Below, piece by piece: positions 38,967-40,742 of a DNA stretch of 64,000 bases. This stretch comes from Planctomycetota bacterium. Its GTDB lineage: Bacteria; Planctomycetota; UBA8108; SXIK01. The translations under genes were made by a program, and so were the position numbers. Position 1 is the first letter of the stretch, and each line of letters starts with the position of its first letter. The notes under the pieces are model-generated. The model was not told the DNA's origin and made no database searches. It saw only the letters and a program-made list of their open reading frames with translations. The DNA lies in assembly GCA_965223845.1 (NCBI GenBank), contig CBDCXR010000004.1:7552001-7616000 (forward strand), written 5' to 3'.

Positions 38967-40742
38967 ATGTCGGATTCAGGACCCCAGCCGGTGGCGCACC
39001 CGAAGTCTCCGGGCGACTTGGAGTCGCGTGCGCTCGAACGGTTCGTGAAGCGCGTTCGGCGGCGCCTCGTGGCAAATCGATTGCTCAGCCATCTCGCGAC
39101 GGCGGTTCTCGTCGGCGTCTCTCTGGTGGCGGCCTTCCTTCTCGTCGATCGACTTCTTCTTCCCGATTCATTTCGGCCGGCGTACGCCGGTTGGATCATC
39201 GGCGGAACTGCTCTCGTCGCTCTCATCTGGACCTTCGTTCGAAGGCCGGTGACGCTGTTTCACGCCGCAGTAGCGGCGGATCGAGAGCTCGACCTCCGCG
39301 AGCGCGTTTCGACCGCGCGGTCCGGACTGGGAGGCGTCGATCCGGAGTGGAGCACCCTCATCGTCCGTGACGCGGAGCAAAGCGTCGAGACCGTCCGCCT
39401 CGCGAACGCATTTCCGGTCATCGTCGAGAGACGCGCGGCGTGGATTCTCGTGCCGCTCTTCGTGTCGATCGGCGTCTTTCTCTGGGCTCCGAGTCTCGAT
39501 CCCTTCGGGATCAAGGCCGAGGAGGCGGAGGCCGCGACCGTGAAGAAACTCATGGACGAACGGAAGGAGAAGCTCGATTCGGAGCTGGAAGAGCTTCAGA
39601 AGAAGGCCGAAGAGGCCGAGTCGGAGGAAGCGCGGAAACTCCTCAAGCTCCTCGCCGAGGACATCGCGAAGAAGAAGGACCCGACGAATTCCGAAAAGCG
39701 CGGAGAGAATGCGGGAGATCAGAACCGCGCGAAGAACGATCCACACAAGAACGCGCTCCTCGAGATGGCGAAGCGCGAGTCGATGATCAAGAAGGGTCTC
39801 GATCGCGATCAGTTTCGCAAGCTGAAGAACGCGCTGAAGGATTTGAAGGGCCTCGATCTCCGGCGGGCGGAGAAGACCCGCGCGCTGCAGGCGGCGCTCA
39901 AGGACGGCGATCTCGCTGCGGCGAAGCGAGAGCTCGACCGGCTCACGAAGAAGATCGCCGAGCTCGCCAAGAAGCCCCAGTCGCAGCTCACGAAGGAGGA
40001 GAAGGAGCTTCTCAAGAAGCTCCAGGAGGAGCTCGCGCGACTCGCGAAGGATTCCGGGGCGCTCGCCCAGCTCGCACCCAATCTCGGGAACTTCGGCGAC
40101 ATGGGTTCGCAGGGACTCCAGCAGATGCTGCAGAACATGCAGCAACTCGGCATGGATCTCGATGCGTTGAAGCAGCTTCAGAACGACATGGATTTTCTGA
40201 AGCAAGCACTCGACATGGTGCAGTTGTCGAAGCAGGACCTCGCGAAGCTGAGTCAGCACAAGTGCCCGAACTGCGGCAAGAACCTCGGCAAGAAACCCGG
40301 TCAGCCCGGCGGGACATGACAGGGCTCGGGAAAGCCCGGTGGCACGTGAAGTGGCACGGGTCAGAGCGGCGGTCGCCTCTCACAGAGTCAGTCGGGGCAG
40401 CAGGGCGCGGGGCTCACCCGGAGCCAGGGAAATCAGTCGGGGCCGAACTACGGCCAGGCGTACGGAAACGGATCTAGCTTTCGCGACGAGAAGACGACGT
40501 ACAAGCGCGACAAGGTCCGTGCGACGCGGCTCGATCCGCGGGGCACGGTGATCGGGAAGCTGGACGTCGAGGGTGTGACGCAGCGGGGTGAGGCGGAGCT
40601 CGAAAAGGGACTGACCGTCGCCGACGTGGCGCAGGAACGAACGGAAGAGGTCGAGCGTGAACCGCTTCCGGTCGAGTTCCGCGATCACGTGCGAACGTAC
40701 TACCAGATGCTCGTCGGCGAAGGGTCGGGCGAGGGAAAGTGA
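38967..40742 (+). CDS. Membrane-anchored coiled-coil protein of the MoxR-vWA operon; candidate selenoprotein with two in-frame UGA codons
   Basis: TM helices then a long coiled coil; the frame continues past TGA 40317-40319 and TGA 40347-40349 into ORF 40548..40742 (same frame), ending with 'EPLPVEFRDHVRTYY'; 591 aa if both TGAs are decoded. Confidence 0.75.
40363..40381 (+). promoter_or_regulatory. Putative bacterial SECIS hairpin after the second UGA
   Basis: gag-c-ggc[GGUC]gcc-u-cuc; the loop GGU is at +22..+24 after the UGA. Confidence 0.55.

Follow-up and report, generated by a model that had tools for sequence, protein, structure and literature searches.

The selenocysteine insertion sequence (SECIS) of the Escherichia coli fdhF gene has the apical loop G22-G23-U24-C25. 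Prokaryotic selenoprotein families that carry two selenocysteine (Sec, U) residues in a small motif of metal-binding or zinc-ribbon type include the FmdB-family putative regulator (TIGR02605, UxxU), the metal-binding protein NF041115 (UxxU) and MbdU (NF045648) (PMC13188914), and a Prx-like UxxU thiol:disulfide oxidoreductase (PF00578) is listed in Table 1 of the same review. C4 zinc fingers built from four-Cys CxxCxGxG units also occur in membrane-anchored DnaJ-like proteins that have no J domain (PMC5915565). For Bat/MoxR-vWA clusters, the roles proposed concern the redox state of the periplasm, with either a reduction of oxidised proteins there or an export of reducing power (PMC3557215). 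Here, we analyse the gene at positions 38967 to 40742 of the forward strand of a 64,000-nucleotide (nt) stretch of Planctomycetota DNA (contig CBDCXR010000004.1), henceforth called the window. The frame of this gene contains two TGA codons, UGA1 and UGA2, and MoxR, DUF58 and BatA/vWA genes follow downstream. We propose, with a probability of roughly 0.85, that it encodes a 591-residue selenoprotein with two Sec residues, specified with the help of tandem hairpins, and not a 450-residue product. A first-pass annotation of the window had suggested that both TGAs code for Sec, and this reading is supported by the Sec machinery of the genome, by the alternation of TGA and Cys codons among relatives and by a covarying hairpin after UGA2.

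The gene resembles those of the FmdB-family regulator, NF041115 and MbdU in that two Sec would replace a Cys pair in a short, Cys-rich, presumably metal-binding motif, with a bacterial SECIS just downstream. However, the window family has a U-x6-11-U arrangement instead of UxxU and shows no NCBIfam or Pfam match with these families even at E <= 1. It also differs from them in that the motif is part of a ~590-residue protein that has membrane helices and an extended helical region, and in what seems to be one hairpin per UGA. With the Prx-like UxxU oxidoreductase it has in common two predicted Sec residues, occurrence in the same organism and a SECIS with a GGUC loop. Nevertheless, the Prx-like gene has a single hairpin, UGAs 9 nt apart and a thioredoxin fold, whereas the UGAs of the window gene are 30 nt apart, with two hairpins and no recognised fold in the protein. 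As in fdhF-type SECIS, the hairpin after UGA2 (hairpin 2) has a GGUC loop, located 22-31 nt from the UGA in the family and at 22-25 in the FdhA-like gene of the same genome; the difference is that two SECIS-like hairpins stand in tandem here and that the apical loop of the first contains the second Sec codon.

Searches of Pfam-A and NCBIfam (release 20.0, June 2026) gave no match better than E = 0.0013 for the window protein and none near a cut-off, and 10 out of 10 Cys-containing homologues tested had no Pfam family match either. No comparable entry was found among the 119 prokaryotic selenoprotein families in Table 1 of the May 2026 review (PMC13188914). All of those entries carry a Pfam, NCBIfam, TIGR or cd identifier, except for an Fe-S oxidoreductase-like protein with a PTHR identifier. 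The table lists no helical membrane protein and nothing with a link to MoxR/vWA, and 'Planctomycet-' appears nowhere in that article. The nine new families of the deep-Sep paper, as far as the accessible part of it describes them, are unrelated (PMC12013277). Full-text literature searches on Planctomycetota selenoproteins, on MoxR-linked or CXXCXGXG selenoproteins and on new families revealed no such family, the unread candidate supplement of PMC4807772, which covers two Planctomycetes, being a place where a homologue might be listed. The literature searched likewise contains no description of tandem SECIS-like hairpins of which the first carries the second Sec codon in its loop. The first-pass annotation knew of no described selenoprotein family like this one, and none turned up in Pfam, NCBIfam or the literature searched; the predicted selenoprotein family is new to the catalogues.

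From the ATG at 38967 the translated frame reads ...HKCPNCGKNLGKKPGQPGGT-TGA(40317-40319)-QGSGKPGGT-TGA(40347-40349)-SGTGQSGG... and runs to its next stop, a TGA at 40740-40742. The full read-through coding sequence (38967..40742, + strand) thus has 591 codons plus the terminal TGA, with Sec predicted at residues 451 (UGA1, 40317..40319, context PGGT-U-QGSG) and 461 (UGA2, 40347..40349, context PGGT-U-SGTG). The codons of the two PGGT-TGA units, CCC GGC GGG ACA TGA and CCC GGT GGC ACG TGA, differ at third positions alone. Both the frame left open to 40742 and the duplicated units with their synonymous differences had been pointed out beforehand and are exact in the sequence and its translation. 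The public annotation of the gene is a 450-residue hypothetical protein, cut at the first UGA, and a GTG-initiated open reading frame (ORF), 40548-40742, lies within the downstream frame, its GTG being codon 528. TGA serves as an ordinary stop in this region, as the first-pass annotation had claimed: it ends seven of the nine neighbouring ORFs checked, most of which have Pfam-supported domains, and TAG ends the other two. Genome-wide reassignment of TGA was rejected for this reason. A frameshift was also rejected, because the part after the TGAs stays in the same frame, as was a separate downstream ORF, on the basis of the alignment of the C-terminal parts of homologues. Re-assembled Logan contigs from four public runs span 40200-40800 without any difference and carry TGA, not TGC or TGG, at both positions, the four runs representing two samples of one study that is possibly the source of the present assembly.

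The read-through protein was searched, with stops counted, against 41 related genomes, of which 21 matched (its own genome is included in both counts). The homologues are 25-42% identical to the window protein, with alignments that span residues 5-591. Among the 20 other genomes, 12 have two in-frame TGAs in the homologous gene, seven have one and a single genome, G005, has none. When the C-terminal parts are aligned, the TGAs of the relatives fall into two columns, those of UGA1 and UGA2, which otherwise hold Cys. G005 has Cys in both (CKSCGKAGQ-C-NSQGK-C-GSCSG), five g14 genomes combine a Cys in the first column with a TGA in the second (CPDCLAGK-C-xAxSGGT-U), and G021 has a single TGA. Of 20 sequences, including the window's own, 19 carry TGA in the UGA2 column and the remaining one carries Cys. 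Of 60 full-length database homologues, 47 have Cys in the UGA1 column and 48 in the UGA2 column. The alternation foreseen for residues 451 and 461 is what relatives and database homologues display: the choice is between Cys and TGA, as opposed to Trp or to variable residues.

None of the 19 TGA-bearing loci, own included, has any other stop, and in each the frame runs into a conserved C-terminal domain, with the motif LDPRG...G....V.G....GEA...E..IP.E....V..YF..L after the TGAs of the relatives. No locus stops near residue 450, and the coding conservation downstream that the first-pass annotation had proposed to look for is present in every one of them. Such a recurrence of aligned TGAs, at identities of 25-42%, is far beyond chance. 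Conserved TGAs, an open frame and alternation with Cys are, in sequence terms, the classical signature of a selenoprotein gene, and effectively exclude a pseudogene, a sequencing error and termination at residue 450.

We also assessed the distribution of the family. In an even sample of the phylum (201 genomes), 88 have a homologue at E <= 1e-10, and 23 of these have at least one TGA inside the match, a few of those TGAs possibly being the terminal stop. Variants were found among eight further TGA loci that were inspected: GGT-U-x11-U in G179, U-x9-U followed by CSSC in G102 and an adjacent U-C in G063. The named relatives with a homologue are Planctomycetota or Planctomycetia metagenome-assembled genomes (MAGs). 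A search of genome contigs with the single protein found no related loci; with a six-row alignment, five Planctomycetota MAG loci were retrieved, all in genomes already counted, and metagenome contigs yielded one locus that duplicates a known one.

The predicted SECIS for UGA2, hairpin 2 (40364..40381, + strand), pairs 40364-40370 with 40375-40381, with one C.U mismatch, around a GGUC loop at 40371-40374 that starts 25 nt from the U of UGA2. A hairpin follows the last UGA in all 19 TGA-bearing sequences, own included. Its apical loop is GGUC in 15 of them, GGUCA in one, AGUU in two and GGUU in one, and it begins 22-31 nt from the U of the UGA, at exactly 25 nt in 13 cases. In a loop-centred alignment (A2), 87.5% of the stem cells pair, compared with 36-49% in controls, and each of the eight stem pairs has changed on either side. 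The covariation score of 0.80 contrasts with 0.08-0.20 for controls in which the 3' arm was slid by one to three columns, and none of 500 shuffles reached it. The peptide encoded by the stem varies by lineage (GRGRG, SERSFVH, GQGLVH) while the hairpin is retained, which argues that selection acts on the RNA. Taken one sequence at a time, the folding of the window's hairpins is unremarkable (z scores of -1.70, +1.58, -0.39 and +0.22), and a synonymous-shuffle test of the hairpin 2 region in GC-rich genomes (z of -1.5 to +0.85) is uninformative since Gly and Arg codons form structure almost regardless of how they are arranged. Support for hairpin 2 comes from the comparison between genomes and not from the window sequence alone. 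On this evidence, Sec is very probably inserted at UGA2. An Rfam scan of 38800-41000 at E <= 10 detected no SECIS family. Its best match, the small RNA CcsR1 (39899-40020, - strand; E = 0.00038), was taken as chance: its 27.8 bits fall short of the gathering score of 65.3, and it is antisense to a GAG/GAA-rich coding sequence and probably compositional.

The genome of the window (7.93 Mb in four contigs) contains selA (536 bits), selB (320 bits), selD (308 bits) and tRNA-Sec (68 bits), all above curated cut-offs, so that the Sec machinery which the first-pass annotation had listed as a check is complete. The selD match, G000:C4:5317241-5318161 (- strand), lies in an open frame of 809 residues, as compared with about 310-350 for a normal SelD, and this frame may represent a fusion protein. 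Other selenoprotein genes of known families were found in the same genome. They comprise an FdhA-like gene with one in-frame TGA and AhpC/TSA-family matches, at least seven of which contain in-frame TGAs; the contexts of the latter are of the W-U-G-P-C type and include one UxxU. The places noted for this set in G000:C4 are 339915, 2926988, 4433634, 6700190, 6272282, 5691221 and 4984549. Together, these matches suggest a selenoproteome that is sizeable for a planctomycete. The UxxU example, an AhpC/TSA-type gene outside the window that represents the Prx-like UxxU oxidoreductases in this genome, encodes FWSEF-U-LM-U-RAQWP, with TGAs 9 nt apart (G000:C4:7394230 and 7394239, + strand). Its single hairpin, CACGAGC-GGUC-GCUCGUG, lies at +33 and +24 from the two UGAs, and one SECIS appears to serve both Sec codons. 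As positive controls, the FdhA-like gene and two AhpC/TSA-type genes (UxxC or UxxU) have GGUC-loop hairpins 22-35 nt past their UGAs, the loops of the latter two genes being at +24/+33 in one and at +35 in the other. A GGUC loop was found after three of the nine UGAs examined in known-family selenoprotein genes of this genome.

Compared with these controls, the GGUC loop of hairpin 2 is too far to serve UGA1, since its distance of 46-61 nt from that codon exceeds 22-35 nt. A second structure located between the UGAs, hairpin 1 (40334..40361, + strand), is a candidate SECIS for UGA1. It has ten pairs, and its apical loop (40346-40350, G-UGA-A), which starts at a SECIS-like distance of 30 nt from the U of UGA1, holds UGA2. 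Its counterpart in another two-UGA gene is GGAGGAACC-UGAC-AGGGUUCCUCC. Of 16 two-UGA genes, 13 have minimum free energy (MFE) folds that place UGA2 in an apical loop of 3-7 nt, and synonymous-codon shuffles give negative z values around UGA2 in all 16 (mean of -1.66). The one-UGA genes have their UGA in an apical loop in 3 of 11 cases, with loops of 9-18 nt, and a mean z of +0.07; no small-loop hairpin comparable to hairpin 1 was seen in these 11 genes. As the small-loop hairpin is found in two-UGA and not in one-UGA genes, hairpin 1 tracks the presence of UGA1. The distance between the two UGAs is 21-36 nt across two-UGA genes. Under our proposal, SelB with its Sec-tRNA would bind hairpin 1 and decode UGA1; the ribosome would then melt hairpin 1 and expose UGA2, which would be decoded by means of hairpin 2. 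Insertion of Sec at both codons is likely on these comparisons, if somewhat less assured than insertion at UGA2.

The putative Sec residues belong to a cluster, C433-x2-C436...U451-x9-U461, that reads CPNCGK...U-QGSG...U-SGTG. The CPNC motif (Cys433 and Cys436, 40263..40274, + strand) would form the first half of a four-ligand site. It is invariant in an 18-sequence alignment (A4), and Cys occupies its two columns in 46 and 49 of 60 database homologues. A read-through profile built from 18 homologues was run against 1.84 billion proteins, with 7481 representatives found at E <= 0.001; 3787 of them reach E <= 1e-10 and 1279 reach E <= 1e-30. The 150 best-scoring of the 7481 were examined. Fifty are shorter than 500 residues, and 37 of these end with G-x-T/L right before the stop, mostly as ...PGGT; judging from these ends they are ORFs called up to the UGA, as is also the picture from a first homology search (see below). 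Of the 150, 105 look full-length. Many of these contain CxxCxGxG-CxxCxGxG (for example P0073, P0075, P0080, P0084, P0097, P0138 and P0139), and the two units are separated as CxxCxGxG-x7-CxxCxGxG in P0089, P0091, P0132 and P0155. In a 78-row alignment (A6, with 60 database rows), the columns of the two Sec residues coincide with both Cys of the second CxxC. Thus, at motif level, the cluster is the predicted selenium form of a four-Cys CxxCxGxG-CxxCxGxG unit. In the two-Sec genes examined the U-U spacing is 6-11 residues, compared with two in the Cys-only second CxxC. Since the stretch between the Sec codons encodes hairpin 1, we infer that the SECIS requirement drove expansion of the spacer; the longer spacer would give room for the first SECIS. 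Fifteen of the 105 full-length-like proteins, including P0018, P0019, P0047 and P0081, lack Cys altogether around the cluster, and in some lineages the membrane and helical scaffold and the C-terminal domain therefore function without the finger. Some Sec-type members have additional Cys pairs ahead of their Sec units (CPECGTPYCPDCGKPQCGCKPGSKPGGT-U...), namely L023 (in G002), P0028, P0042 and P0046, and their cluster would comprise up to eight Cys and two Sec.

The first-pass annotation had compared the motif with the CxxCxGxG zinc knuckle of DnaJ. This holds in so far as the Sec columns correspond to the second CxxC of Cys-only homologues, but the threshold of the Pfam family was missed (see below). 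The Cys-only homologues resemble the DnaJ-type C4 finger by their CxxCxGxG repeats, and the window protein keeps one CxxC and two U-x-G-x-G units. Plant FIP (PMC5915565) is similar in combining a membrane anchor and a finger with no J domain. Unlike the DnaJ-type finger, however, the window protein has one four-ligand unit instead of two, two of its predicted ligands are Sec, and PF00684 does not match it.

Several observations weigh against the proposed two-Sec, Cys2Sec2 protein. In 3 of 16 two-UGA genes, UGA2 lies outside the apical loop of the MFE fold; RNAalifold applied to 13 aligned two-UGA sequences recovered hairpin 2 and not hairpin 1; and the register of hairpin 1 differs among lineages. 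Because RNAalifold missed it and its register shifts by lineage, the evidence for hairpin 1 is weaker than that for hairpin 2. As to hairpin 2, the window's own stem contains the C.U mismatch, and its folding energy is no better than that of dinucleotide or synonymous shuffles. A simple scan of the genome for TGAs with a GGTC hairpin of six or more contiguous base pairs behind them returned 65 combinations, 15 of them with open frames and none convincing; it missed the present gene because the stem mismatches after three pairs. The presence of selA is non-discriminating, given that 40 of 41 relatives searched carry it, including G005 with its Cys form. The Pfam DnaJ_CXXCXGXG family (PF00684) does not match the window protein, and in 2 of 10 Cys homologues it yields 15.8 bits, below the cut-off of 32.7. 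An AlphaFold2 model gives predicted local distance difference test (pLDDT) values <50 for the Sec cluster (residues 447-523, including a Gly/Ser/Gln linker) and thus lends no structural support to a four-ligand site. Lastly, as regards the role of Bat clusters, Leptospira bat mutants showed no oxidative-stress phenotype (PMC3557215).

The alternative that survives best is improbable in our view. It holds that decoding of the UGA2 type alone is efficient and that UGA1 is a leaky or selenium-dependent stop, the main product being the 450-residue protein beside some full-length protein, with hairpin 1 acting as an attenuator or a spacer or with the GGUC hairpin serving both codons. That hairpin 1 has no GGUC loop and was not recovered by RNAalifold would fit this scheme. 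So would the UxxU AhpC/TSA-type gene, whose one GGUC hairpin for two UGAs 9 nt apart indicates that a single SECIS can serve two codons. However, the GGUC loop is 46-61 nt from UGA1, beyond the 22-35 nt of the controls, and hairpin 1 tracks UGA1, being present in 13 of 16 two-UGA genes with no small-loop equivalent in the 11 one-UGA genes. In addition, the UGA1 column is Cys in most homologues, and the residue at this position therefore matters.

Stop-codon readthrough stimulated by downstream structure is known in general. The UGAs might accordingly be suppressed by a near-cognate tRNA for Trp, Cys or Arg, or be recoded by a local signal, with the hairpins merely stimulatory, and the fact that Sec is proposed from sequence comparison leaves some room for this. 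Nevertheless, we find it very unlikely: the aligned residue in homologues is Cys and not Trp or variable, the hairpin loop and its spacing are as in the known-family selenoprotein genes of the genome, and that genome has the full Sec machinery, with TGA terminating seven of nine neighbours checked.

The next alternative, still less probable, is that the gene ends at 40319 and that the downstream frame is a separate small gene or non-coding. In a first homology search with the read-through protein, 13 of 18 matches were called as proteins of 437-478 residues, with 68-75% query cover, unnamed or annotated 'hypothetical protein' and without a Pfam domain. The GTG-initiated ORF at 40548-40742 could also be taken for the small gene. 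In contrast, the downstream frame is conserved as protein and stop-free in all 19 TGA-bearing loci, the Cys-form homologues G005 and P0020 are contiguous across both parts, and the conserved LDPRG at 522-526 lies upstream of the GTG codon 528. A pseudogene or a sequencing or assembly error is hardly conceivable, with two TGAs at aligned positions in 12 other genomes of several families, identical contigs from four runs and flanks clearly conserved as protein.

The predicted selenoprotein begins with a membrane anchor of three hydrophobic helices (39087..39491, + strand; residues about 41-61, 75-91 and 158-175), with a loop of roughly 65 residues between the second and the third. It continues with a long helical region (residues about 182-429, 39510..40253, + strand) in the AlphaFold2 model and, after both UGAs, ends with the conserved C-terminal domain (residues about 500-585, 40464..40721, + strand), which has the pattern LDPRG..G....V.G....GEA ... 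E.LP.E....V..Y. The model, computed on alignment A6, has a mean pLDDT of 80.1 and a predicted template modelling score (pTM) of 0.61. Residues 16-430 are helical in the model, with block pLDDT values mostly >90 and dips to ~63-69 at 241-260 and ~77-83 at 361-380; in the anchor region its helices span 16-64, 71-92 and 155-173. The C-terminal domain has helices at 551-564 and 569-584, with block pLDDT values of 71-81. A fold search of the PDB with the model gave no match at E <= 0.001. Of the 'membrane-anchored coiled coil' first put forward, the anchor stands, with its three hydrophobic helices, and the coiled coil is better termed a long, confidently predicted helical region. Arg clusters flank the three hydrophobic helices and, by the positive-inside rule applied by eye, suggest an N-in topology, in which everything from the helical region through the Sec cluster to the C-terminal domain would lie outside the cytoplasmic membrane.

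Downstream of the selenoprotein gene and on the same strand are genes for an NHL-repeat beta-propeller with an N-terminal hydrophobic helix (40925..42136; Pfam NHL, 1.4e-29), a 1023-residue vWA and GATase1_like protein with two N-terminal hydrophobic helices (42133..45204; Pfam), a MoxR AAA+ ATPase (45205..46209; AAA_3, 8.9e-62), a DUF58 protein (46214..47113; 2.6e-36) and a protein with a BatA N-terminal domain and a vWA domain (47199..49142; BatA, 2.4e-10; VWA_2, 1.1e-16). The gene was initially described as heading a MoxR-vWA operon. MoxR, DUF58 and BatA/vWA genes do follow it on the same strand, but the NHL and vWA/GATase1-like genes come first, and an operon is putative. An NHL propeller gene and then a vWA/GATase1-like gene follow the selenoprotein gene of the window and likewise its homologue in each of the three distant loci annotated (G031, G029 and G005). 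MoxR is downstream in the window and in the Cys-form G005; in the f6 genomes G031 and G029, its place is taken by a GT2 glycosyltransferase gene after the vWA/GATase1-like gene, plus an ABC transporter. Bat/MoxR-vWA neighbours were accordingly found in the window and, as regards MoxR, in G005, and not in G031 or G029. As MoxR is absent next door in the latter two, the constant partners are the NHL propeller and the vWA/GATase1-like protein. Downstream ORFs in G003 and G014 match those of the window in size, a correspondence by size alone.

Hence, the locus resembles Bat and MoxR-DUF58-vWA clusters by its downstream MoxR (AAA_3), DUF58 and BatA-N plus vWA genes on the same strand. It differs from Bat clusters in that the selenoprotein has no AAA_3, DUF58, BatA or vWA match, and in that MoxR is not next door in G031 and G029. 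The window protein has no BatA, vWA or TPR match in Pfam that would place it among the Bat proteins, BatC to BatE not having been searched by name.

We tentatively suggest a redox or metal-related role for the Cys2Sec2 cluster in a Bat-like module, a proposal that we hold with less than even confidence. The flexible, Gly-rich cluster would bind a metal or cycle between selenenylsulfide and selenol/thiol forms at the outer face of the membrane. The protein might work together with the NHL propeller and the vWA/GATase1-like protein inside the MoxR-DUF58-BatA module. More doubtful is the widest form of this idea, a family widespread in Planctomycetota in which a DnaJ-type four-Cys finger became Cys2Sec2, its second Cys pair being stretched from a spacing of 2 to one of 6-11 residues to accommodate nested tandem SECIS, as an outer-face selenium-based redox or metal-sensing element of the Bat/MoxR-vWA machinery.

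If the 591-residue reading is correct, the gene adds a selenoprotein family that has neither the thioredoxin fold nor a known enzyme domain and that is systematically cut short in public databases. Two Sec codons 21-36 nt apart, each with its own hairpin, would allow tests of the way in which SelB and the ribosome deal with close Sec codons, and the change from CxxC to U-x6-11-U would be an example of a SECIS requirement possibly reshaping a protein motif. A Sec-based centre, probably redox or metal-binding, would be placed in the conserved MoxR-DUF58-BatA/vWA neighbourhood, an envelope module of long-unexplained function. It would then be the first chemically tractable active site for the Bat/MoxR-vWA machinery, and a selenium-dependent phenotype or a Sec-to-Cys swap would open the function of the Bat module to direct study.

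Two minor observations concern the neighbouring genes. Besides its two vWA domains, the 1023-residue protein has a GATase1_like domain and weakly matches the Filamin repeat. Since an Arg-rich loop separates its two N-terminal helices, the vWA domains would, by the positive-inside rule, be outside the cytoplasm. Upstream of the selenoprotein gene are two genes for M16-type peptidases (35424-37517 and 37514-38836, + strand; Pfam Peptidase_M16 and M16_C). ORFs of similar sizes to this pair also precede the homologue in G003 (L040) and in G005 (L064), and the M16 pair may be part of the conserved neighbourhood.

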